A stretch of 40,359 bases of DNA, from positions 1 through 40,359 of IMG/VR virus record IMGVR_UViG_3300031176_000059. The stretch is one strand, 5' to 3'. This document shows positions 6,123-39,083 of the stretch, one piece after another. The first letter of the stretch is position 1; every line of letters begins with the position of its first letter. Made by a program: the position numbers and the translations under genes. The notes beneath the pieces were generated by a model. It saw only the letters and a program-made list of their open reading frames with translations. It was not told where the DNA came from and ran no database searches. Source of the DNA: a virus. Taxonomy: Duplodnaviria; Caudoviricetes.

Positions 6123-6322
6123 CCAAGCACATCCGCCGCTTCCAATTTTACTGCCGGAAAGCCGCCGCCTACGCGACGGACCGGCGGCCGCGGCAACAAC
6201 GCAACAAATATCGGTTCGACCGGCTCATGGCGTACAAGGCGGCCATGCAACGCCGGATCGAGGCCGACAGGTGGCGCTGGCGGGCGGCGATTGAGATGGA
6301 GGTTGAGAGAGCATGCACGTGA
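6119..6322 (+). CDS. Hypothetical basic phage protein
   Basis: ATGA overlap, RBS ggggtgg. Confidence 0.55.
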   Translation: MTKHIRRFQFYCRKAAAYATDRRPRQQRNKYRFDRLMAYKAAMQRRIEADRWRWRAAIEMEVERACT

Positions 6323-7113
6323 TCAGTTTGGGAGCCGGCGTCCAAAGCACGACCATGTTGCTCATGGCCGCGCGTGGCGAGATCGAGCCGAAACCGCGCT
6401 ACGCCATATTCGCTGATACGGGCTGGGAACCGAAGGCGGTATATCGCCACCTCGATTGGTTAAAAGGCGAGGCAGCGCGATATGGCATCGAAATCATCAC
6501 AGTGTCAAAGGGAAACTTGCGTGACGACCTGATCGAAGCGTGCGAACATGGGACGAGATTTGCATCCATCCCATTTTACACGATCAATCCAGATGGAAGT
6601 CTGGGAATGGTGCGGCGTCAGTGTACCAAGGAATACAAGATTGAAGTCATTCAGCGGAAATGCCGCGAGCTACTTGGTTACAAACCGAGACAACGAATTC
6701 CAGAAGGCGCTTTAACTCAATGGATCGGCATCAGCTTGGACGAGTACCAACGCATGCGGACGAGCCGGGATAAATGGATCGTCCTGCGCTATCCGTTGAT
6801 CGAAAAGGAAATGACACGAGCGGACTGCTTGGCGTGGTTGGAGCGTCACGGCTATCCACAGCCGCCAAAAAGCTCCTGCATCGGGTGCCCGTTTCACAAC
6901 AACCGCTACTGGCTCGAAATGAAACGCAACAACCCGGACGAGTGGGCAGAAGCTGTGGAAATCGATCGGAAAATCAGGAAGATTCCGCGCTTCCGAGGAC
7001 AGGTATTTCTCCATGCGCAACGGGTTCCGCTTGATCAGGTGGATCTTGGTGAAGATCAGATGGATCTGTTCGACGGATTCATCAATGAATGCGAAGGGAT
7101 GTGCGGTGTGTGA
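6313..7113 (+). CDS. PAPS-reductase-like / PP-loop (adenine nucleotide alpha-hydrolase) protein, Cys-rich
   Basis: ISLGAGVQS (degenerate PP-loop), FADTGWE, RQCT, YPL, KSSCIGCPF, C-terminal ECEGMCGV. Confidence 0.75.
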   Translation: MHVISLGAGVQSTTMLLMAARGEIEPKPRYAIFADTGWEPKAVYRHLDWLKGEAARYGIEIITVSKGNLRDDLIEACEHGTRFASIPFYTINPDGSLGMVRRQCTKEYKIEVIQRKCRELLGYKPRQRIPEGALTQWIGISLDEYQRMRTSRDKWIVLRYPLIEKEMTRADCLAWLERHGYPQPPKSSCIGCPFHNNRYWLEMKRNNPDEWAEAVEIDRKIRKIPRFRGQVFLHAQRVPLDQVDLGEDQMDLFDGFINECEGMCGV

Positions 7114-7895: not shown

Positions 7896-8213
7896 GTGCC
7901 CGTTCAAATCGCAAGAAAATCGCGCGACCTTGAGGCCGACCTCGCGATTTGCGAGGCGGCCACGCCGGGGCCGTGGGCGGTGTGCGGCCGGTATGTCGTC
8001 CGGGACAAGTACGAACTGGGCAATTACCGCCAAGCCGTGTTTAAGGCCGAACATATTCCGAAGATCGAGGCGGATATGCGGTTCGCAGTTGAAGCCCGCG
8101 AAGGCTGGCCGTATGCGATCCGGCGGGCGCTGGCGGCGGAAGCCGAGATCGATCGGCTCCGGAACGAGATCCAAATCCTGCAGGAGCAGCTGGAGCAATG
8201 CTCCCATCGGTAA
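7896..8213 (+). CDS. Hypothetical phage protein (Ead/Ea22-like)
   Basis: RBS gaggagg; DLAICEAATPGPW...DMRFAVEAREGWP motif, coiled-coil C-terminus. Confidence 0.65.
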   Translation: MPVQIARKSRDLEADLAICEAATPGPWAVCGRYVVRDKYELGNYRQAVFKAEHIPKIEADMRFAVEAREGWPYAIRRALAAEAEIDRLRNEIQILQEQLEQCSHR

Positions 8214-9535
8214 ATCTTTTCGAGCATCAGAAAACCATCCTGCGGGAACTCGAAAAGCGTCCCTATTTCGCCATCTTCGCCGAACAGGGCACTTCAAAGA
8301 CGCTCCCAATGCTCATCCACGCGTTTCGCCTGTTCAAAGCTGGTGCGATCCGGCACGCGCTGGTGGTGTGTCCCAGTTCGGTGCGGGGAAGTTGGAACCG
8401 GGACATTCGCCGGTTTTTCTCCCCGCTCGAACAGCGGATCTTTGAAAAGTTTCTGACCGTGACCACCTACGACCTGGTGTGGCGCCGGCTGGAATTTGAT
8501 CGGCAGTGGGACATGATGGTGCTCGATGAGTCCCACTTCATCAAAAACCGTACCAGCAACCGGTACCGCGGCCAGATCAAGAAGGTGGACGGCAAGCGCC
8601 GACGGGTGACAAACGGGATTCAGCAGATCAGCCGTCGGTCCAGATTCCGGTACATCATGACCGGCACGCCGATCGGAAACAGCCGGTGGGAAGAAATATG
8701 GGCGCAATTCGACTTCATGTGTCCGGGACTGCTCGGCACATATTCCGAATTCGAAAAGGAATATTGCATCATCGGCCCATATTACAAGCCGATCGAATAC
8801 CGGAATATCGACAAACTCAAGACCATCATTGCCCAGCATTCGATCTGGATCCGGAAAGCGGACTGTCTGGACCTGCCGGAAAAACTGCCGCCGGAGCGTC
8901 TGACGATGGAGCTCGAGGAGCGGAGGCTGTACAAGGAAATGCTCCAGAACTACATCGAAGAGCTCGACATCGAAGCGAAAAATCCGCTGGCGCGCCTTGT
9001 GAAGCTCCGGCAGATGTGCAGCGGTCACATCCGGGACGACGCCGGCACGGTCCATCGGCTGAAATGCGCGAAGTCTGCGGCGTTGGACGAGCTCCTCGAA
9101 AACTGGGATAAGAAGCTCGTCATCTTCGCGGAATTCGAGGAATCGATCGCCGACATCTGCCGCGTGCTGGAGAAACGCAAAATCCGCTATGTGACCCTCG
9201 ACGGCCGGCAGAAGAACAAGCAGATCTGGAAAAGGTTCCAGACGGAGCCGGACCTGCAGGTGATTGTTTGCCAGTACCGCTCGGCGTCGGCCGGAATCGA
9301 CTTGTTCGCGGCGGACACCATGATTTTTTACGAACCCACGCTCAGCAGTCAGACGTTCGAGCAAGCCTGCGATCGGATCCACCGGCCGGGCCAGAGGGAG
9401 AAATGCAGCTACATCCTGTTCGAGACGGCCGGGACGGTCGAGGTGAAGATCTGGGACGCCCTCATGCGGCATCGCGACTTCAATGAAACTGAGTTGCGGG
9501 CTTTCGTGAAGGAGGTGCAATACAACGTTGGATGA
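8198..9535 (+). CDS. SNF2-family (DExH) helicase
   Basis: EQGTSKT (degenerate Walker A), LDESH, MTGTP, LRQMCSG, AGIDL, QACDRIHRPGQ. Confidence 0.88.
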   Translation: MLPSVNLFEHQKTILRELEKRPYFAIFAEQGTSKTLPMLIHAFRLFKAGAIRHALVVCPSSVRGSWNRDIRRFFSPLEQRIFEKFLTVTTYDLVWRRLEFDRQWDMMVLDESHFIKNRTSNRYRGQIKKVDGKRRRVTNGIQQISRRSRFRYIMTGTPIGNSRWEEIWAQFDFMCPGLLGTYSEFEKEYCIIGPYYKPIEYRNIDKLKTIIAQHSIWIRKADCLDLPEKLPPERLTMELEERRLYKEMLQNYIEELDIEAKNPLARLVKLRQMCSGHIRDDAGTVHRLKCAKSAALDELLENWDKKLVIFAEFEESIADICRVLEKRKIRYVTLDGRQKNKQIWKRFQTEPDLQVIVCQYRSASAGIDLFAADTMIFYEPTLSSQTFEQACDRIHRPGQREKCSYILFETAGTVEVKIWDALMRHRDFNETELRAFVKEVQYNVG

Positions 9536-10871
9536 GCTCATCGTAGACAACTTTGCCGGCGGTGGCGGCGCCAGCACCGGCATTGAAATGGCGATCGGCC
9601 GTCCAGTGGACATCGCCATCAACCATGACCCGGCGGCCATCGCCATGCATCGCACCAACCATCCCCGGACGGTGCACTACAACGAGAACGTGTGGGACGT
9701 CGATCCGCGGGAAGCCACGAAGGGACGGAAAGTTGCGCTGTGTTGGCTTTCCCCGGACTGCACACATTTTTCCAAAGCCAAAGGCGGGAAGCCGAGGGAC
9801 AAGAAAATCCGCGGACTTGCATGGGTGGCGGTCCGCTGGGCAGCGACGGTACGGCCCAGGGTAATCATCCTTGAAAACGTGGAAGAATTCCGGGATTGGG
9901 GGCCGCTTGACGAGCGCGGGTACCCGATCGAAGAGCAGAAAGGACGAATCTTCCGGTCATTCGTGAGCGCTCTCCGCCGGCAAGGATACGAGGTGGACTG
10001 GCGCGAGTTGCGAGCCTGCGACTATGGCGCCCCGACTATCCGAAAACGATTTTTCCTCATCGCCCGGTGCGACGGCCGGACGATCGTCTGGCCAAAGCCG
10101 ACACACGGGGACCCGCAGAGTCCGGCAGTGCAGGCCGGAAGGTTGAAACCGTGGCGGACAGCTGGTGAGATCATCGACTGGTCGCTACCGGTTCCCAGCG
10201 TCTTCGACTCGTCCGAGGAGATCATGCGGAAATACGGAATCCGGGCGGTCCGGCCGCTGGCCGCCAACACTATGCGGCGAATCGGTCTCGGGGTTTGGAA
10301 GTTCATCCTGAACAATCCCAATCCTTATATCGCCCCGGTGGAATGGAAGGAAGGGGTTCACTCCGGACCGGTGGCGGCGTTTTTGGCGAAGTATCACACG
10401 GAGACAACGAACGATCCGAGAGGACAGACACTGGACAGGCCGCTGCTGACGCAAGACACGTCGAATCGGTTCGCGCTGGTCACGGCGAAGCTTCAGCGAG
10501 CGGAAGAACCGAACCCGAACGGTGAACGAGTCTGGGCATTCCTGATTGCCTACTACGGATCCAGCATCGGCCAGCAAATGAGCGAACCGCTGGGAACGGT
10601 CGTCACAAAAGACCGCTTTGGTCTTGTGATGGTGCGTGGGACACCATACCGGATCATCGACATTGGACTCCGGATGCTGGAACCGCACGAACTGTATCGG
10701 GCGCAGGGATTCCCGGAGGGGTATGTCTTCGACCGGGATGACGCGGGGAGACCGCTCCCGAAGAAGGACCAAGTCGAGAAGTGCGGGAATGCGGTTCCGC
10801 CGCAATTCGCGGAGGCTCTGGTCCGGGCAAACCTTCCGGAATTGTGCAGACGGGAGGCGATGCTTGCATGA
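9528..10871 (+). CDS. DNA (cytosine-5) methyltransferase
   Basis: FAGGGG, SPDC (catalytic Cys), ENV, RKRFF, AQGFP, GNAVPP motifs. Confidence 0.92.
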   Translation: MDELIVDNFAGGGGASTGIEMAIGRPVDIAINHDPAAIAMHRTNHPRTVHYNENVWDVDPREATKGRKVALCWLSPDCTHFSKAKGGKPRDKKIRGLAWVAVRWAATVRPRVIILENVEEFRDWGPLDERGYPIEEQKGRIFRSFVSALRRQGYEVDWRELRACDYGAPTIRKRFFLIARCDGRTIVWPKPTHGDPQSPAVQAGRLKPWRTAGEIIDWSLPVPSVFDSSEEIMRKYGIRAVRPLAANTMRRIGLGVWKFILNNPNPYIAPVEWKEGVHSGPVAAFLAKYHTETTNDPRGQTLDRPLLTQDTSNRFALVTAKLQRAEEPNPNGERVWAFLIAYYGSSIGQQMSEPLGTVVTKDRFGLVMVRGTPYRIIDIGLRMLEPHELYRAQGFPEGYVFDRDDAGRPLPKKDQVEKCGNAVPPQFAEALVRANLPELCRREAMLA

Positions 10872-11206
10872 TCAGTGGCAAAATCCGCACCCGGGACGGC
10901 GAGCTGGTTTTCGTCAGGGACGAAAAGGACTTTGTCCAGCTCGTCGAGCGCGAAATAGGATACGACGCCGCCCAGCTGGTTCGAGAGTTGGCTGATCTGG
11001 CCGACATGACTCAGCAGCGGTTGCAAACGGACCTCAATAGTTACGAATCAGAACTGTCAGAGCTCCAGATCGCAATCCGGGATCTAGACCGGAAGCCCGA
11101 CGCGCTGATCGCAATCTCCAATAAGCAGCGCATAAACGCTGCCGACAAGCGGGAGCTCCGTCGTCTGGCGGAAATGATCCGAGGGTTGCTCAGTCTGGCG
11201 CCATGA
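10868..11206 (+). CDS. Hypothetical coiled-coil phage protein
   Basis: ATGA overlap with the methyltransferase stop, RBS ggagg. Confidence 0.65.
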   Translation: MISGKIRTRDGELVFVRDEKDFVQLVEREIGYDAAQLVRELADLADMTQQRLQTDLNSYESELSELQIAIRDLDRKPDALIAISNKQRINAADKRELRRLAEMIRGLLSLAP

Positions 11207-11215
11207 GGTGGTGAA

Positions 11216-13762
11216 ATGAACGAAAACATCTGGATCTACGACTGCGAAGTCTTTGCCCACGACTGGATTTTTGTCGCCAAGCGGCCGGACGAAAGCGGCG
11301 AACAGGTGGTGTTGCACAACGACCCGGCAGCCTTTCGATGGTGGGCGGACAGCTTCGGACGGGACGGTTCCTTGGTCATCGGAGGATACAACACCAAGCA
11401 CTATGACCAGTGGATCATCAAAGCGATTTATTTCGGCGCCACCCCGGAAGAAATCAAGAAGATCAGCGACTTTATCATCGCCGGGGGTAACGGTTGGGAT
11501 CATCCGTTTTTCGCGGAAACGCGGTGGCCGCCCTGGATGAACTTCGATCTCATGGATGACATCCCGGTCCCGCTGCGGCTGAAAGAAATCGAGGGAAACC
11601 TCGGCATGGACATTGAGGAAAGCAAAGTTTCCTTCGACATCGACCGGCCGCTGACGGAAGAGGAGCGAAACGAAGTCATCCGGTACTGCTGCCACGACGT
11701 CGACGCCGCAATCCGACTCTATCATGAGCGCAAGGATTACCTGCAGTCCAAGATCGCCGTCGGCGCCATGTGTGGTCTGTCGGCCGGGGAAAGCCTGCGG
11801 CTGACCAACGCCAAACTCACGGCGGAATTCCTGGGAGCGCAGCCGCCGCAAACGGACTGGCCGGACCGGGACGTCTATGAATTCCCGGAGAACCTGATCA
11901 TCACGAAGTACCCGCAGGTGATTGAGTTCTTCGCCGACGTCGATCCGGAACGAAAGCGCAAACTCAAAATCGACATTGCCGGCGTCCCGCACACAATCGC
12001 CTGGGGCGGCCTGCACGGCGCCCGGGAGTGCTATCGGGAGGAACGGACGGAAACCCGCCGGATCTCCAGCCGGGACGTGACGAGCTACTATCCGAGCCTC
12101 ATGATCGTGAATGGCTACATGAGCCGGAACGTCCCGGATCCCGGACAGTTCAAACGGGTTTACGAGCGGAGGATCGAAGCCAAAAAGGCCGGGGACAAGG
12201 CCACCGCGGACGCGCTGAAGCTGGTTTTGAATACCACGTTTGGCGCCATGAACAACCAGTTCAACAAGCTCTATGACCCGCGAATGGCGCTGGCGGTGTG
12301 CGTGTCGGGGCAGCTCTATCTGATCGACCTTATCGAAAAGCTGGAAGAGGTCCCGAGCTTTCGCCTCATCCAGTCCAACACGGACGGGCTGATCATCTCC
12401 TACGACGCCGAGCACGAGACGGAGATCGACGCCGTAATCGACGAATGGAGCCAACGGACCGGCTTCGGGATGGAGGCGACCGACGTCGAGAAAATCGTCC
12501 AGAAGGACGTCAATAACTACGTCCTGCGGACCACCGGGGGCGAAGTGAAAGTCAAGGGTCCCTACCTCGCCGTCCTCGACGCCCCGCACTGGCGGCAAAA
12601 CAGCATGAAGATCGTCGCGAAGGCAATCGTCGAAAACTTGCTGAACGGCGTGCCGCCGGAGGAGACGATCGGCGCCTGCGATGATATGGAACAGTTCCAG
12701 ATCATCACGAAAGCCGGCAACACCTACGACAAGGTCATCTGGCGGAGCCCGGCCGGCGAGGTTGAGGTCCAGAATGTCAACCGGGTGTTCGCCAGCATCA
12801 ACGAGGACGCCGGTACGTTGTACAAAGTCAAGCTTCCGAAAGCGCCCGGCGAAAAAGAACGTCGGGACAAGATCGCCGATCTACCGGAACACTGTTTCAT
12901 CGCCAATCGGCAGATCGACTTCAGATTAGAACTGCTCGACAAGCAGTTCTATATAGACCTTGCAAAAAAGAGGATTAATGACTACTTGGGCGTGAAGCCC
13001 GAAAAACCTGCAAAAAAGGAGAGGAAGAAAACCATGGCAACGAAGACCAAAGCCACTGAAACCGCACAAGTGCAGGAAACTGTTCCCGCGGATCCGCGGC
13101 TCCGGCTCTACCAGAAACTCGCGAAGCTTCAGCAAATTATGGACTCGTTCGAATGGACGAAGGACGGTAAGAACCGGCACCAGTCCTACGAGTACATCAC
13201 GGAAAAGCAATACAAAAACAACTTCAAAAAGGCCCGGGCCGAGGCCGGGCTGCTGTGGAAGATGGAGGAGATCGGTCACGAGTTCATCGGCACCATCTCG
13301 GACAAGATGCACCTCGTGCTGACGAAATTCCGCGGCCGGCTGATCGACCCAGAGACGGGCGAGTTCGAAGAATACCTTTTCTCTGGCAGCGGCGCCGACA
13401 ACGGCGACAAGGCGCTGTACAAGGCGTACACCGGCGGGCTGAAGTTTTTCCTGGCGTCGAACTTTCTCGTCGCCGAAGGAAACGATCCCGAAAACGATGA
13501 GGAGGAAATGCGGCAACTCAAGCCGGCCTATGCCACGCCCGAACGGCGGGAAGAGATCCGCGGCGCGTTGACCAACCAGGACGAGCCGGCGACGGAGGAG
13601 CAGCTGGAGGCGATCGCGCTCGGCATCGAAGAATTGCAGAAGGCCGGAGTGGACGAGGAGACCATCGCGGGATTCGCGGAGGCCCTCGAAAGCGAGCTGA
13701 CCAAAGCGGACGCCGAGAAGCTGCTTGACGCCATCACCGAACTGACGGCGACGCCATTCTGA
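11216..13762 (+). CDS. Family B DNA polymerase (aa 1-~600) fused in frame to an ERF-family single-strand annealing protein
   Basis: ExoI YDCE, ExoII GYNTKHYD, ExoIII YCCHDV; Pol A DVTSYYPS, B KLVLNTTFG, C NTDG; C-terminal ERF motifs KDGKNRHQSYEY and GSGADNGDKALYKAYTGGLK...DPE. Confidence 0.85.
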   Translation: MNENIWIYDCEVFAHDWIFVAKRPDESGEQVVLHNDPAAFRWWADSFGRDGSLVIGGYNTKHYDQWIIKAIYFGATPEEIKKISDFIIAGGNGWDHPFFAETRWPPWMNFDLMDDIPVPLRLKEIEGNLGMDIEESKVSFDIDRPLTEEERNEVIRYCCHDVDAAIRLYHERKDYLQSKIAVGAMCGLSAGESLRLTNAKLTAEFLGAQPPQTDWPDRDVYEFPENLIITKYPQVIEFFADVDPERKRKLKIDIAGVPHTIAWGGLHGARECYREERTETRRISSRDVTSYYPSLMIVNGYMSRNVPDPGQFKRVYERRIEAKKAGDKATADALKLVLNTTFGAMNNQFNKLYDPRMALAVCVSGQLYLIDLIEKLEEVPSFRLIQSNTDGLIISYDAEHETEIDAVIDEWSQRTGFGMEATDVEKIVQKDVNNYVLRTTGGEVKVKGPYLAVLDAPHWRQNSMKIVAKAIVENLLNGVPPEETIGACDDMEQFQIITKAGNTYDKVIWRSPAGEVEVQNVNRVFASINEDAGTLYKVKLPKAPGEKERRDKIADLPEHCFIANRQIDFRLELLDKQFYIDLAKKRINDYLGVKPEKPAKKERKKTMATKTKATETAQVQETVPADPRLRLYQKLAKLQQIMDSFEWTKDGKNRHQSYEYITEKQYKNNFKKARAEAGLLWKMEEIGHEFIGTISDKMHLVLTKFRGRLIDPETGEFEEYLFSGSGADNGDKALYKAYTGGLKFFLASNFLVAEGNDPENDEEEMRQLKPAYATPERREEIRGALTNQDEPATEEQLEAIALGIEELQKAGVDEETIAGFAEALESELTKADAEKLLDAITELTATPF
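13034..13762 (+). CDS. ERF-family recombinase translated from an internal in-frame start (MATKTK..., 242 aa)
   Basis: aaggagagg RBS 9 nt before in-frame ATG 13034 at the domain boundary. Confidence 0.65.
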   Translation: MATKTKATETAQVQETVPADPRLRLYQKLAKLQQIMDSFEWTKDGKNRHQSYEYITEKQYKNNFKKARAEAGLLWKMEEIGHEFIGTISDKMHLVLTKFRGRLIDPETGEFEEYLFSGSGADNGDKALYKAYTGGLKFFLASNFLVAEGNDPENDEEEMRQLKPAYATPERREEIRGALTNQDEPATEEQLEAIALGIEELQKAGVDEETIAGFAEALESELTKADAEKLLDAITELTATPF

Positions 13763-13772
13763 GGTGAGGAAT

Positions 13773-14825
13773 ATGCAGATCGACCTCCAAACCCGAACAA
13801 TCCGACTTCCGGAAAAGCCGCGGCGAGTCAAAAAGATCACGGGGACGAGGCTGGCGCCGATCCTCGGCCTCTCCCCGTGGTCAACGGAATTCGAAGTCTG
13901 GTGCGATATGATGGGTGTCTACAAGAAGCCGTTCGAAGAGACAATTTACACGGCCGCTGGCAAAATCATCGAACCGAAGGTCATTAACTATCTGAACCGG
14001 CGGTACGCCTTTGGCAAGCTCCAAACACCGACCCAGTACTTCGGCGGCCAGCCGCGTTACGAATGGGACCACTTCCCGGACGAACCGGTATTCGGCGGCA
14101 TGTGGGACGCGCGGACGCCGACCGCGATCTGGGAACTCAAGACCACCAAACGGGTCGAGGACTGGTACAAACACGGCCAGTTCTCGCCACCCGAATACTA
14201 CAAGCTGCAGGGCGCGCTGTATGCGTATCTCTCCGGGCTGGACGAGTTCCGGATCGTGCTGTCGATCCTCACGGATAAGGAGTACGAGGCGCCGGAAAAG
14301 TTCGAGCCCTCGCCCGACAACACGATTGTCAAGAAGTACAGCGTGGCCGCGGAATACCCGAACTTCGCCGCGCATCTGGATCGGGCACTCAAATGGTACG
14401 AGCGGCACATCAACGGTCTCGTGAGCCCGGTCTGGGACGACAAGAAGGACCGGGAGATCGTCCAGGCGCTCACCACCGCGCACGTCCCGCAGCCGGCGGC
14501 CGGCGAGGAAGGCGATATCGTCGCGGAGCTCATCCGGCGGATCGAGCCGCTACAGGCCCGGATCGACGCCGTGAGCGAGCAGATCGCCGAGGATGAGAAG
14601 ACGCTGAAGCAGCTGAAAGACCAGCTCAAGGCGGAGCTGGAGGCGCGGATGAAGGACAGCGACAAGAAGATCCAGGCCGCCGGCAAACTGTACCTTTTCG
14701 AAGTCACCAAAACCGCCGCAAGCGGAATCGACACCGACCGCCTGAAAGCAGACGGGCTCTATGAAAAATACCGCAAAAGCGGGTTCACCACCAAAATCAC
14801 CATCAAAAGGAGCGATGCTGTATGA
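13773..14825 (+). CDS. YqaJ-like (lambda exonuclease family) recombination nuclease
   Basis: ITGTRLAPILGLSPW, G..IEP, GMWD...WELKT, YYKLQ; RBS gaggtg. Confidence 0.82.
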   Translation: MQIDLQTRTIRLPEKPRRVKKITGTRLAPILGLSPWSTEFEVWCDMMGVYKKPFEETIYTAAGKIIEPKVINYLNRRYAFGKLQTPTQYFGGQPRYEWDHFPDEPVFGGMWDARTPTAIWELKTTKRVEDWYKHGQFSPPEYYKLQGALYAYLSGLDEFRIVLSILTDKEYEAPEKFEPSPDNTIVKKYSVAAEYPNFAAHLDRALKWYERHINGLVSPVWDDKKDREIVQALTTAHVPQPAAGEEGDIVAELIRRIEPLQARIDAVSEQIAEDEKTLKQLKDQLKAELEARMKDSDKKIQAAGKLYLFEVTKTAASGIDTDRLKADGLYEKYRKSGFTTKITIKRSDAV

Positions 14826-15325
14826 AGCGCAAACTGGTCGAAGGATTCCAACCCATTCCGGCAGGGGAGCAAGTCGTCCGCATCAAGGAGATCGACGAGA
14901 CGGACTACGAGAAATTCGACAAGCTGGTCGTCGTAATCGAAGACGCCCACGGCCGCACGGCACGCGTCAACTTCACGTTCGTCAACGACGACGGCACGCC
15001 GAATGACACCGCCGAGTTCGTCTATTCGCGGATGGCCCGGGCCGCCATGGGCGACGAAACACTCGATGAAGTGGACACCGCCGACCTGATCGGAAAGTTT
15101 GTCCGAGTCGAGATCGAACACCGGACCGGTTCGCAGGGCGGCACGTTTGCGAACGTGAAACGCTGGATCGGCCCCGGAGAACCGTTCGAAGTGAGGAAGT
15201 CCGCTGCCGGCAACAAAACTGTCGGATCCGCGGGTGCCGCGTCGCCGGCCGGAGAAGCGCCGAAGAAGAAAACGGCCGCCGAGATCCTCGCCGAAATGAA
15301 GGCTCGGAAGGCTGCGGGGAAATGA
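14822..15325 (+). CDS. Putative single-stranded DNA-binding protein (DUF669-like)
   Basis: FQPIPAGEQVVRIKEI...DLIGKFVRVEIEH...FANV pattern; position in the recombination module. Confidence 0.65.
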   Translation: MKRKLVEGFQPIPAGEQVVRIKEIDETDYEKFDKLVVVIEDAHGRTARVNFTFVNDDGTPNDTAEFVYSRMARAAMGDETLDEVDTADLIGKFVRVEIEHRTGSQGGTFANVKRWIGPGEPFEVRKSAAGNKTVGSAGAASPAGEAPKKKTAAEILAEMKARKAAGK

Positions 15326-15611
15326 GAGAGAAGCAGCTGCAGGATGACTGCGTGCGGTATCTCGAGGGGCGCAATATCTACCATGTCGTGACACACGGGA
15401 ACGCCTTCGAGCGCCGCGGCCGGATCTGTATATCTGCTACCGGGGGCGTTTCATCGGTTGCGAGTTGAAGAAGGGGTCGGGCGACAAGCCCACCCCTTTA
15501 CAACAAAAGCACCTGCGGGAGATTGAAGCAAGCGGAGGGATAGGGGTATGGCTCACGTCGCTGGATCAACTGAAAAGCCTGCTGTCCTCGATCGATTCGA
15601 TGCCTTCCTGA
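15322..15611 (+). pseudogene. VRR-NUC nuclease, frameshifted near 15421
   Basis: First frame MREKQLQDDCVRYLEGRNIY...FERRGR; shifted frame DLYICYRGRFIGCELKKG...PTPLQQKHLREIEASGGIGVW; restoring 4 bp (ccgg) gives GRPDL. Confidence 0.8.
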
Positions 15612-17548
15612 AGCTCCGGGAAGACAAGGCGTCGATCAGTTGGGACACCTATCCGGCCGACAGGCTCCGCGCGTGGCCGAACGTCGGTCTGCCCATCCCT
15701 GAGCCCTACGTCGCCGTGGACATCGACGACGCCGAGCAGGCGGAGAAGCTGACCCGGCTGGTGACCGAGGAAGGCATCAAGTGTCAAATCATGCAGACGT
15801 CCCGCGGCAGGCACTTTTGGTTCGCGACGGCCGAACCGGTCAAGAACACGATCAAGTCGACCACCGGGATCGGCCTCGTCGCCGACTACCGCTCCTGGGG
15901 CAAGCAGTCTCAGGTATGCGTGAAATACGCCGGCAAGTGGCGGGAATGGCTGACGGATTGGGACTGGGACGAGCTCGACGAGTTGCCCAGGTGGCTTCGT
16001 CCTCTGCGCCAAACGAAATGGCGCTTTTATGAGATGGGCGAGGGCGACGGCCGGAACCAGGTGCTGTTCGAGTACCAAATTCTGCTCGCCAGCCGCGGCT
16101 ACACACACGCGGAGGCCGCGGAGGTCCTGCGCCTGATCAACCAGTACGTGTTCCGCGAGCCGCTGCCGGATGACGAGCTCGCCAAAGTCTGCAGGGAAGA
16201 GGCATACCCGGAAGTCGACCGGCCGGCGCCGGGCGTCGATGTCGACGCGCCCTGGTTCACGGAAAAGGGGAAGTTTCTCCATAACGTCATGGGGGACATT
16301 CTGATCAGCGAAATGCGCATCATCAGCCGGCACGAGCGCCTGTACGTGTACAAGGACGGCTACTACCAGCCGGGGGAATACGAGATCCTGCGGGCGATGA
16401 TCGAAAAATACCCGACCTCGAAGCGCAGCGAGCAGAACGAGGTGCTGAACTACATCACGATCCAGCGGCACATCGGCGACCCGCCGGTGGAGGAGTATGT
16501 CATCAACGTCAAAAACGGCCGGCTGGACCTCAGAACCGGAGAGCTTCACCCACACACGCCGGAGGCGTACGACTTCCAGCAGGTCAATGCCGTCTACGAC
16601 CCCACGGTCTATTACGAGCCGATCGACCGGATGCTCATGCGGGTCTTCTGCGGGGATTATCAGCTGTTCAAGCTGTTCGAGGAAATGCTCGGGTATTGCC
16701 TGATCAAGAATTGCCGGATGCAGAAGATCTTCATCATGTTCGGCGACGGCAACAACGGAAAGTCGACGCTCCTGCGGATGATCTGCGCATTCATCGGCGA
16801 GGGGAATTATTCAACCCTTTCGCTGCAGGATCTGGAGACAACGTTCAGGCCCGCAGAATTGGAAAACAAGCTGGTCAACCTGGGTGATGACATCCCGGCA
16901 ACGACGATCAAAGACTCCAGCCGGCTGAAAAGCATCTCGTCCGGGGAGCGGATCACAGTCGAACGCAAGAACAAGGACCCATTCATCCTGAAAAATTACG
17001 CAACCCTGATTTTCACCACAAACAAGATGCCACCGGTCAATGACAAGTCGTTCGGGTTTTACCGGCGTCTGATCCTGATTCCGCTGGATGCCAAATTTTC
17101 GAACACGGATCCGGACTACGACCCGGATATTTCCCAGAAGGTCGTTTCCGAAGAGGCGCGCAGCTACCTGCTGAACATGGCGGTCCGGGGCCTTCGCCGG
17201 CTGCTAAAGAAGGGCTTCACCCGGTCGGAGAAGGTGGAGAAGGCGATCCGGACCTACAAGGTTCAGAGCTCGCATGCGCTGACCTGGCTTTCGGAAAACG
17301 ACATCACGGAGGAATATCTGCTTTCGAAACACACCGGGGAGCTGTACGCCGAGTTCAAAACATGGTGTGAGCAGGAGGGTGTGGAGAACATTCCCCGGCA
17401 GCAGACGTTCACGATGGACATCCAGAAAGAGTTCGATTTCATGATTTCGAAACAGGTGCGGGATCCGAAAACGGGAAAACGGTGCCGGTTTTTCATACGC
17501 TCGGGTGGAAGTGAAACGGAAACCTCAGAAATTGAAGTGACGGCGTGA
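15548..17548 (+). CDS. Primase-polymerase / PriCT / D5-like SF3 helicase (P4-family primase)
   Basis: VAVDID and TSRGRHFWF prim-pol motifs, EGDGRN PriCT, NGRLDL D5_N, GDGNNGKST Walker A, FTTN motif C. Confidence 0.9.
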   Translation: MAHVAGSTEKPAVLDRFDAFLKLREDKASISWDTYPADRLRAWPNVGLPIPEPYVAVDIDDAEQAEKLTRLVTEEGIKCQIMQTSRGRHFWFATAEPVKNTIKSTTGIGLVADYRSWGKQSQVCVKYAGKWREWLTDWDWDELDELPRWLRPLRQTKWRFYEMGEGDGRNQVLFEYQILLASRGYTHAEAAEVLRLINQYVFREPLPDDELAKVCREEAYPEVDRPAPGVDVDAPWFTEKGKFLHNVMGDILISEMRIISRHERLYVYKDGYYQPGEYEILRAMIEKYPTSKRSEQNEVLNYITIQRHIGDPPVEEYVINVKNGRLDLRTGELHPHTPEAYDFQQVNAVYDPTVYYEPIDRMLMRVFCGDYQLFKLFEEMLGYCLIKNCRMQKIFIMFGDGNNGKSTLLRMICAFIGEGNYSTLSLQDLETTFRPAELENKLVNLGDDIPATTIKDSSRLKSISSGERITVERKNKDPFILKNYATLIFTTNKMPPVNDKSFGFYRRLILIPLDAKFSNTDPDYDPDISQKVVSEEARSYLLNMAVRGLRRLLKKGFTRSEKVEKAIRTYKVQSSHALTWLSENDITEEYLLSKHTGELYAEFKTWCEQEGVENIPRQQTFTMDIQKEFDFMISKQVRDPKTGKRCRFFIRSGGSETETSEIEVTA

Positions 17549-18863: not shown

Positions 18864-19577
18864 ATGGAGGAAATAGCTTCTATGGAGGAATTGCTAGTGA
18901 CTCCTGATCAAATGCAGTTAATTTTGCAAAGAAAGTATGAGATTGTCACAAGAAGTGAATTGCCAAATGGTTCTGGTACCCAATTTAGATTATCAAACAA
19001 TGCAATAGTGAACGTATTTAAGACCGGAAAATATAACGTACAGGGTAAAAATAGTGCCGAAGTTCAAACGTATATTCAAAATAATCTCGCAAGTTTTTCT
19101 GATGAATCCGCAAGCGTAAATAAGAATGTTTTTGTAGTTTACGGGCATGATCAAAATTCAAGAAATCAACTAGAGTTACTTTTAAGACGATTTGATTTAA
19201 TTCCGCTCATATTGGATCAATTGCCTTCTGGTGGACAAACCATTATTGAGAAATTAGAAGCTAATATTAGTAGAGCCCATTTTGGAATTATTTTAGCAAC
19301 TGCTGATGACGAAGGGTATAGAAGAGGACATCCAGAAGAGAAAATGTTTCGGGTCCGACAAAATGTCATCTTGGAAATGGGCATGTTATTAACTCGTTTG
19401 GGGCGGGATAGAGTATTTATTCTATTGCAAGATCAGGAAAACCTTGAAAGACCTTCTGATATCCAAGGGCTCATTTACATTCCATTTAAAGAAGATCTTA
19501 TCAAAGAAGCTGGTCCATTACTTGCAAGGGAACTTGAGAAACTTGGGATTATGATTCCGGCTTCAGCGCTAACATGA
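18864..19577 (+). CDS. TIR-like nucleotide-binding protein (CAP12/Pycsar-effector-type TIR) with a small N-terminal domain; AT-rich moron
   Basis: VFVVYGHD, GQTIIEKLE, ATADDEG, RQNVILEMG (catalytic Glu position), ERPSDIQG; true start may be 18882 or 18897. Confidence 0.85.
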   Translation: MEEIASMEELLVTPDQMQLILQRKYEIVTRSELPNGSGTQFRLSNNAIVNVFKTGKYNVQGKNSAEVQTYIQNNLASFSDESASVNKNVFVVYGHDQNSRNQLELLLRRFDLIPLILDQLPSGGQTIIEKLEANISRAHFGIILATADDEGYRRGHPEEKMFRVRQNVILEMGMLLTRLGRDRVFILLQDQENLERPSDIQGLIYIPFKEDLIKEAGPLLARELEKLGIMIPASALT

Positions 19578-38950: not shown

Positions 38951-39051
38951 TGTGAAATAATATGGAATGATATGAAAAGAGAAAACAAAGAAAGCCCGAT
39001 TTTACGGGCTTTTTGATTTATTATGAATATATATAATAGGTATAAATAATA

Positions 39052-39083
39052 AAGTTCGAGATGGAAGGTTCGATCGGATAATC
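39052..39083 (+). repeat. attR core (duplicate of the sufB 3' end)
   Basis: Identical to 1369-1400. Confidence 0.95.

Follow-up and report, generated by a model that had tools for sequence, protein, structure and literature searches.

Organization of the locus

The window analyzed here, meaning the whole stretch of 40,359 bases under study, is a provirus record that begins with sufB and an integrase gene. A direct repeat of the sufB 3' end at 1366-1398 and 39049-39081 likely corresponds to attL and attR, pointing to a prophage that integrates in sufB. The early module presents the order SNF2 helicase, methylase, small ORF, PolB-Erf, exonuclease, SSB, VRR-NUC-like gene and primase-helicase. 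At its center, positions 11216..13762 (+) encode a stop-free translation of 848 aa that fuses a family B DNA polymerase (PolB) to an Erf-like annealing protein, with homologues of 790-970 aa aligning at near-full coverage.

Pfam and PHROGs searches identified the SNF2-type helicase (8198..9535, +), located upstream in 24 of 69 fused loci, and the Prim-Pol/D5-type primase-helicase (15548..17548, +). The same resources confirmed the first-pass annotation of the two genes following the fusion as an exonuclease and a single-stranded DNA-binding protein (SSB). The first (13773..14825, +; PF09588, phrog_434) encodes a YqaJ/RecE-like exonuclease, the likely partner of the annealing protein, for which ATG 13773 (Shine-Dalgarno [SD] value of -11.5) makes a better start than GTG 13764 (-3.5). 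The second (14822..15325, +) matches phrog_378 (E 4e-5). The gene at 15322..15611 (+), which from its motif we take to belong to a VRR-NUC-like nuclease family, is intact in seven close relatives. In the window it is frameshifted, a GGCC repeat being 4 nt shorter than its counterpart in close relatives, and it is broken in an identical contig (L006) too.

Two further genes of the early region, coding for a PAPS-reductase-like protein (phrog_424; 6313-7113) and a C5 cytosine methylase (9528-10871), possibly serve DNA modification. A gene encoding a CAP12/Pycsar-type TIR domain (18864-19577; PF10137, E 1e-33) lies between the late regulator and the packaging genes, and is likely a defence moron.

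Domain architecture of the fusion protein

The first-pass annotation had read this ORF as a single stop-free frame holding a PolB and an Erf annealing domain, and translation, PHROGs profiles, sequence motifs and structure models all agree with that reading. With the 848-aa protein as query, PHROGs assigned residues 2-597 to phrog_1252, a DNA polymerase profile (E 4e-155), and residues 625-841 to phrog_155, the profile of an Erf-like ssDNA annealing protein (E 3e-16). The profile check of both domains hence succeeded with PHROGs but not with Pfam, which returned no match for either the polymerase or the Erf part of this protein. In the AlphaFold2 model, two confidently predicted modules flank a disordered segment spanning residues 600-625 (pLDDT <50).

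The polymerase part (residues 1-592; 11216..12991, +) presents all the motifs of a proofreading enzyme, with ExoI at residue 8, ExoII at 58, ExoIII at 157 and motifs A, B and C at 287, 335 and 388, the latter reading NTDG. Residues D9, E11, D64, D161, D287, K335, N339 and D390 are invariant or nearly so across 41 homologues. The AlphaFold2 model adopts a PolB fold (pLDDT 87.9), and the top 50 Foldseek rows obtained with this module are all PolBs, the best being archaeal PolBs (E about 1e-15). The polymerase profile also matches E. coli Pol II (E 2.5e-6), and in a BFVD search crAss-like polymerases turned up only at lower ranks. This part is therefore a family B DNA polymerase with a 3'-5' exonuclease domain, for which proofreading polymerase activity is predicted.

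A Lys/Arg-rich linker (residues 593-606; 12992..13033, +) follows, and its DNA doubles as a translation start region. The strong ribosome-binding site (RBS) claimed in the first-pass annotation was located at 13016..13024 (+), where AAGGAGAGG precedes the in-frame ATG 13034 by 9 nt. Initiation at this codon would yield a free Erf-like annealing protein of 242 aa with a Met-Ala start (13034..13762, +). This predicted product, searched alone, matches phrog_155 with E 7e-18, and its stand-alone relatives measure 210-260 aa.

The annealing part consists of a RAD52/Erf-fold core (about residues 627-755; 13094..13480, +) and a three-helix C-terminal domain (13583..13759, +) that is markedly acidic, with 26 Asp and Glu against 8 Lys and Arg in residues 756-848. 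When the annealing module was folded alone and compared with VIA-align, it matched RAD52 (Z 9.8, rmsd 3.7, 130 aligned), Mgm101 (Z 9.8), Gp77 (Z 9.4) and Sak (Z 6.7). The four best structural rows are RAD52 (two entries), Mgm101 and Gp77, all within Z 9.4-9.8, and the next row drops to 7.7. Based on the profile match, the modeled core fold and the gene context, the annealing part belongs to the Rad52/Erf/Sak superfamily, with annealing activity being predicted. The window protein does not match the Pfam ERF family PF04404 at E 0.01, a profile matched by 37 of 46 aligned relatives. The PF04404-positive relatives carry a TYxRRY-type signature in the last core helix, which we take to be the mark of the ERF family in the strict sense; this signature is absent from the window subtype, which presents a DKALYK-type helix instead. 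By sequence, the window domain is thus a divergent Erf-like subtype outside PF04404. The two Erf subtypes are about 20-25% identical and both occur fused to PolB (28 and 11 of 40).

Conservation of the fused arrangement

Among the best 120 of 1595 homologue matches, 113 read through into a downstream domain, as defined by a chain extending 60 or more residues beyond the polymerase end, and they do so down to about 40% identity. Conserved read-through coupled to an internal RBS and ATG, which had been proposed as the property to survey, is hence a trait of the family, and the notion that close homologues all carry a stop codon before ATG 13034 fails. The nearest named relative of the fusion protein comes from Paenibacillus alkalitolerans (72% identical), and fused forms are present in named isolates. 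A Logan contig covers 11000-15800 with one difference and no gap, although it possibly derives from the same DNA and is not an independent observation.

The locus arrangement was compared in 177 loci found with the fusion protein or its alignment, plus the window. Fourteen rows in which the polymerase was partial or split were set aside. Of the 164 remaining loci, all with a near-complete polymerase, 78 are fused, 53 have a separate erf gene (split), 32 have no Erf in the fetched DNA (bare) and one lies at a contig edge. Because the searches ordered loci by their resemblance to the full fusion, the fused share is inflated and the shares are not population frequencies. Where there was room to look, an exonuclease gene was found downstream in all 69 fused loci and in 45 of 47 split loci, as opposed to none of 29 bare loci. 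A search from the Erf side returned 79 loci (38 fused, 7 separate and 34 polymerase-free), some of them repeats of earlier contigs. The polymerase-free loci show that the counterpart of the predicted short product is elsewhere encoded by a complete gene of its own. Among 1040 matching records in a phage collection, a single one reaches 80% query coverage, and it is split.

A single substitution would turn 386 of the 687 linker codons, over half of them, into a stop (a median of 8 such codons per locus). Because the frame nevertheless stays open, read-through of the linker looks to be under selection at the sequence level. On a polymerase tree (quick LG+G4 inference, 85 rows, midpoint root), the Erf subtype changes four times, and the fused layout therefore survives replacement of the annealing domain. 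The Erf-less forms fall on one side of this tree; on the other, the deep branches are fused and the split forms are nested among them, fission having occurred several times (seven state changes). A single clade of fused forms was rejected (p-AU 7e-14). One reading of this quick, midpoint-rooted tree is that fusion is ancestral and fission derived.

Several architectural variants were observed among these relatives. Some fusions bear a linker insert of 60-70 aa (P0070, P0073, L076, L131), and others are about 120 aa longer overall, reaching 958-970 aa (P0059, P0061, P0065, P0083, P0094). In one sub-lineage the polymerase is itself divided just before motif A, so that one gene encodes the exonuclease and another the polymerase(-Erf) part. 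The break lies near polymerase residues 265-285 (L062, L066, L069, L071, L079 and L154; also L193 and L197), sometimes with an inserted ORF between the two genes, and L062 and L079 also carry a stop inside motif A.

Evidence for a selected internal translation start signal

Internal start statistics were computed on 47 fused ORFs, retained from 87 at <80% identity, using the first linker ATG irrespective of its SD or, in two loci without ATG, a GTG. These 47 rows are kin, so that pooled p-values overstate their independence, yet the effect is large. An SD duplex of -8 kcal/mol or stronger precedes 40 of the 47 linker starts, versus 20 of 844 other in-frame ATGs. In 44 of 47 fusions the linker SD is stronger than the average over synonymous recodings, and in 18 it reaches p<0.05 individually. 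The SD of the window pairs with the anti-SD at -11.1 kcal/mol but is not significant alone under synonymous recoding (p 0.115), and the case for more than chance rests, for this reason, on the family.

Codon usage and reading frame both indicate that the signal resides in the DNA. Arginine at the SD region is encoded by the rare codon AGG in 31 of 47 instances, compared with 143 of 1420 in the remaining sequence. The GGAG core is found in each of the three reading frames (15, 13 and 6 loci; 13 loci lack GGAG), encoding different peptides, and selection on the protein cannot explain its conservation. In 110 of 113 fused homologues a Met lies no more than 35 residues from the polymerase end, against 1011 of 1797 control windows, and the start codon is directly followed by Ala in 37 of the 47 fusions. 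Taken together, these sequence data indicate that an internal RBS and start codon at the domain border are selected in the DNA.

The first-pass annotation had further anticipated abundant free Erf, a claim that fared unevenly. The internal SD is not stronger than that of the polymerase start (-9.6 versus -9.8 kcal/mol, p 0.84). In all 40 loci compared, on the other hand, the internal start region is predicted to be more open than that of the polymerase, which favors an excess of the short product, with the caveat that this openness follows partly from A-rich Lys codons. In the window, local RNA folding at the linker is weak (-6.9 kcal/mol). A scan of 10500-16000 revealed no internal promoter before 13034, returning a single weak promoter-like site at 11970 where 1.3 are expected by chance. 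One sequencing run labelled as metatranscriptomic, but probably DNA, contained only short related contigs.

C-terminal tails of split polymerases

A C-terminal tail of 20 or more residues was found in 53 of 53 polymerases with a separate Erf, versus 1 of 33 without Erf nearby. These tails are basic and mostly amphipathic in pattern. Comparison by hhalign gave no support for homology between these tails and either Erf end (probability 0.2%).

The C-terminus of one split polymerase was modeled with three copies of Erf, giving a score of 0.39 compared to 0.01 for the best control. Runs agreed on at least 58% of contacts with a partner pLDDT of at least 72, and no interface was obtained. Of 157 solved complexes, 116 passed the mark used for complex models, as did 2 of 215 mismatches; at scores of 0.60 or under it was passed by 18 of the 157 solved complexes and by both mismatches, and a pass at such scores is rated as more often wrong than right unless the interaction is likely beforehand. 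The modeling hence weakly supports binding of Erf by the C-terminus of split polymerases.

Tail-less polymerases with a separate Erf were detected in L199/L200 and in Eggerthella phage EL753P1. Together with the 32 Erf-less relatives, such forms indicate that the polymerase does not need a tether everywhere. In L199/L200, a sequence resembling, by eye, a near-consensus sigma-70/sigma-A promoter follows the polymerase (L199/L200:3341-3500), and it precedes the separate erf gene along with a strong SD. In two other loci (L192:1601 and L194:2278), erf is a separate gene and the polymerase frame continues into another module, 55 aa long, that carries a helix-hairpin-helix-like motif. This module also sits behind a strong SD (-12.9) and an ATG, presenting the same nested-start arrangement with another passenger.

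A model for coupled annealing and extension, and its alternatives

The conservation of read-through and of the internal start makes it very probable that the fusion gene yields two products, a full-length PolB-Erf and free Erf, with the RBS and start codon in the linker probably providing the latter in excess. We lean, with considerably less confidence, towards a second proposition, namely that mixed Erf rings carrying a few polymerases couple annealing to extension by hand-over. The Erf-like protein Gp77 assembles as a 24-mer ring (PMC13017515). A ring made of 848-aa subunits alone would presumably be crowded, and dilution by free Erf would give a reason for the nested start: free Erf and a few PolB-Erf subunits would co-assemble into annealing rings. 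The YqaJ-type exonuclease would resect the DNA, SSB would coat it and the ring would anneal the strands. The flexible linker of about 25 residues would then give a tethered polymerase access to a 3' end annealed on the ring, and the hand-over of that end could serve gap filling, genome circularisation, concatemer formation or fork restart. Indirect support for mixed rings and annealing-coupled extension comes from the persistence of the fused layout through Erf swaps and from the tail in split relatives, while the existence of tail-less split forms weakens the case.

The two products could also co-assemble without any hand-over after annealing, the Erf ring acting as a DNA-binding anchor or processivity aid for ordinary replication. 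Many PolBs have a clamp-binding tail at their C-terminus, a position that is here occupied by Erf or, in split forms, by the tail, and the same module encodes a primase-helicase and an SNF2 helicase. We nonetheless regard this explanation as unlikely, given that 25 of 29 bare loci have a similar primase next to the polymerase but no Erf and that Erf always travels with the recombination exonuclease.

It is also rather improbable that the fusion provides only compact, fixed-ratio co-expression, with Erf on the long product as a tolerated passenger. The repeated fissions and scattered fused rows of the polymerase tree would fit such a passenger, as would the tail-less split forms and the nesting of a different small protein behind the polymerase in L192 and L194. 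A linker stop codon, reachable by one substitution at a median of 8 codons per locus, would however achieve co-expression just as well, and yet deeply diverged relatives still read through, also where Erf has been swapped.

We consider it very unlikely that the full-length protein alone is made and that the SD-like motif is left over from an ancestral erf gene, makes ribosomes pause or belongs to a frameshift signal. The window linker does contain an in-frame A AAA AAG heptamer, but this heptamer is not conserved (4 of 47 fusions versus 5.2 expected), and a relic would decay over divergence to 40% identity, whereas the SD (in all three frames), its spacing, the ATG or GTG and the Ala second codon are kept together. 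A programmed -1 frameshift in the linker was likewise rejected, since the 47 fusions show no enrichment of slippery heptamers (7 versus 14.3 expected). Finally, a strain-specific stop loss or assembly error, conceivable in a genome with a 4-nt frameshift two genes downstream in the VRR-NUC-like gene, has next to no probability in view of the 113 of the best 120 homologues that read through, the fused state of 78 of the 164 loci retained above and 38 of 79 Erf-anchored loci, and the fusions in named isolates.

The favored reading, two products co-assembling into mixed rings, places annealing and DNA synthesis in one gene with built-in control of their ratio, making their coupling testable through point changes in the RBS, the ATG or a linker stop. 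Current annotation hides the fusion, as these proteins of more than 800 aa are named 'ERF family protein', 'DNA polymerase' or hypothetical. If coupling holds true, the exonuclease-Erf-PolB-SSB module would be a candidate self-contained recombineering system for the Bacillota.

Relationship to known systems

A literature search over openly available full texts returned no description of a PolB-Erf fusion. The main text of a Firmicutes SSAP survey (PMC8093625) does not mention one, and those of two PolB surveys (PMC7544198, PMC4889955) do not mention Erf; the supplements of all three could list such proteins. The parts and the internal-start device are already known, and it is their combination in PolB-Erf for which no description was found.

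The closest parallel for the device is gene 4 of phage T7, which encodes the gp4A primase-helicase and, from Met64, the gp4B helicase (PMC1616965). Both are replication genes in which an in-frame internal start gives rise, by prediction in our case, to a long two-domain protein and a short ring-forming one. In T7 a helicase forms the ring and the added domain is a primase, whereas here an annealing protein would form the ring and a whole replicative polymerase is added to it. The annealing part shares a RAD52-type fold with P22 Erf, SECPhi27 Gp77 (PMC13017515) and the erf-ssb modules of Firmicutes (PMC8093625), as well as a small helical C-terminal domain and exonuclease and SSB neighbors. In these sources, Erf-like SSAPs are described as stand-alone genes; here the protein is fused to PolB and belongs to a subtype missing PF04404. 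The polymerase belongs to the same family as the primer-dependent PolBs of PHROG 1252 from Enterococcus, Bacillus and Paenibacillus phages, with crAss-like relatives. Fusions of phage PolBs to helicase and primase domains are known from HelPrimPolB, where these domains are N-terminal (PMC7544198, PMC4889955), unlike Erf, which lies behind the polymerase.

The tethering of a strand-joining domain to a polymerase also resembles, as a functional analogy only, DNA polymerase theta. The latter combines an SF2 helicase-like domain with a family A polymerase; the parts of the two systems are thus unrelated, and the internal start present here has no counterpart in polymerase theta. In the human enzyme, attachment of the polymerase to the helicase is required for end joining (PMC6764996). 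It is conceivable, if doubtful, that in a widespread clade of Bacillota temperate phages rings of internally initiated Erf and PolB-Erf capture resected ends, anneal them and extend the 3' end within a single complex as a counterpart of polymerase theta, with a docking C-terminal helix taking the place of the fusion in split lineages.
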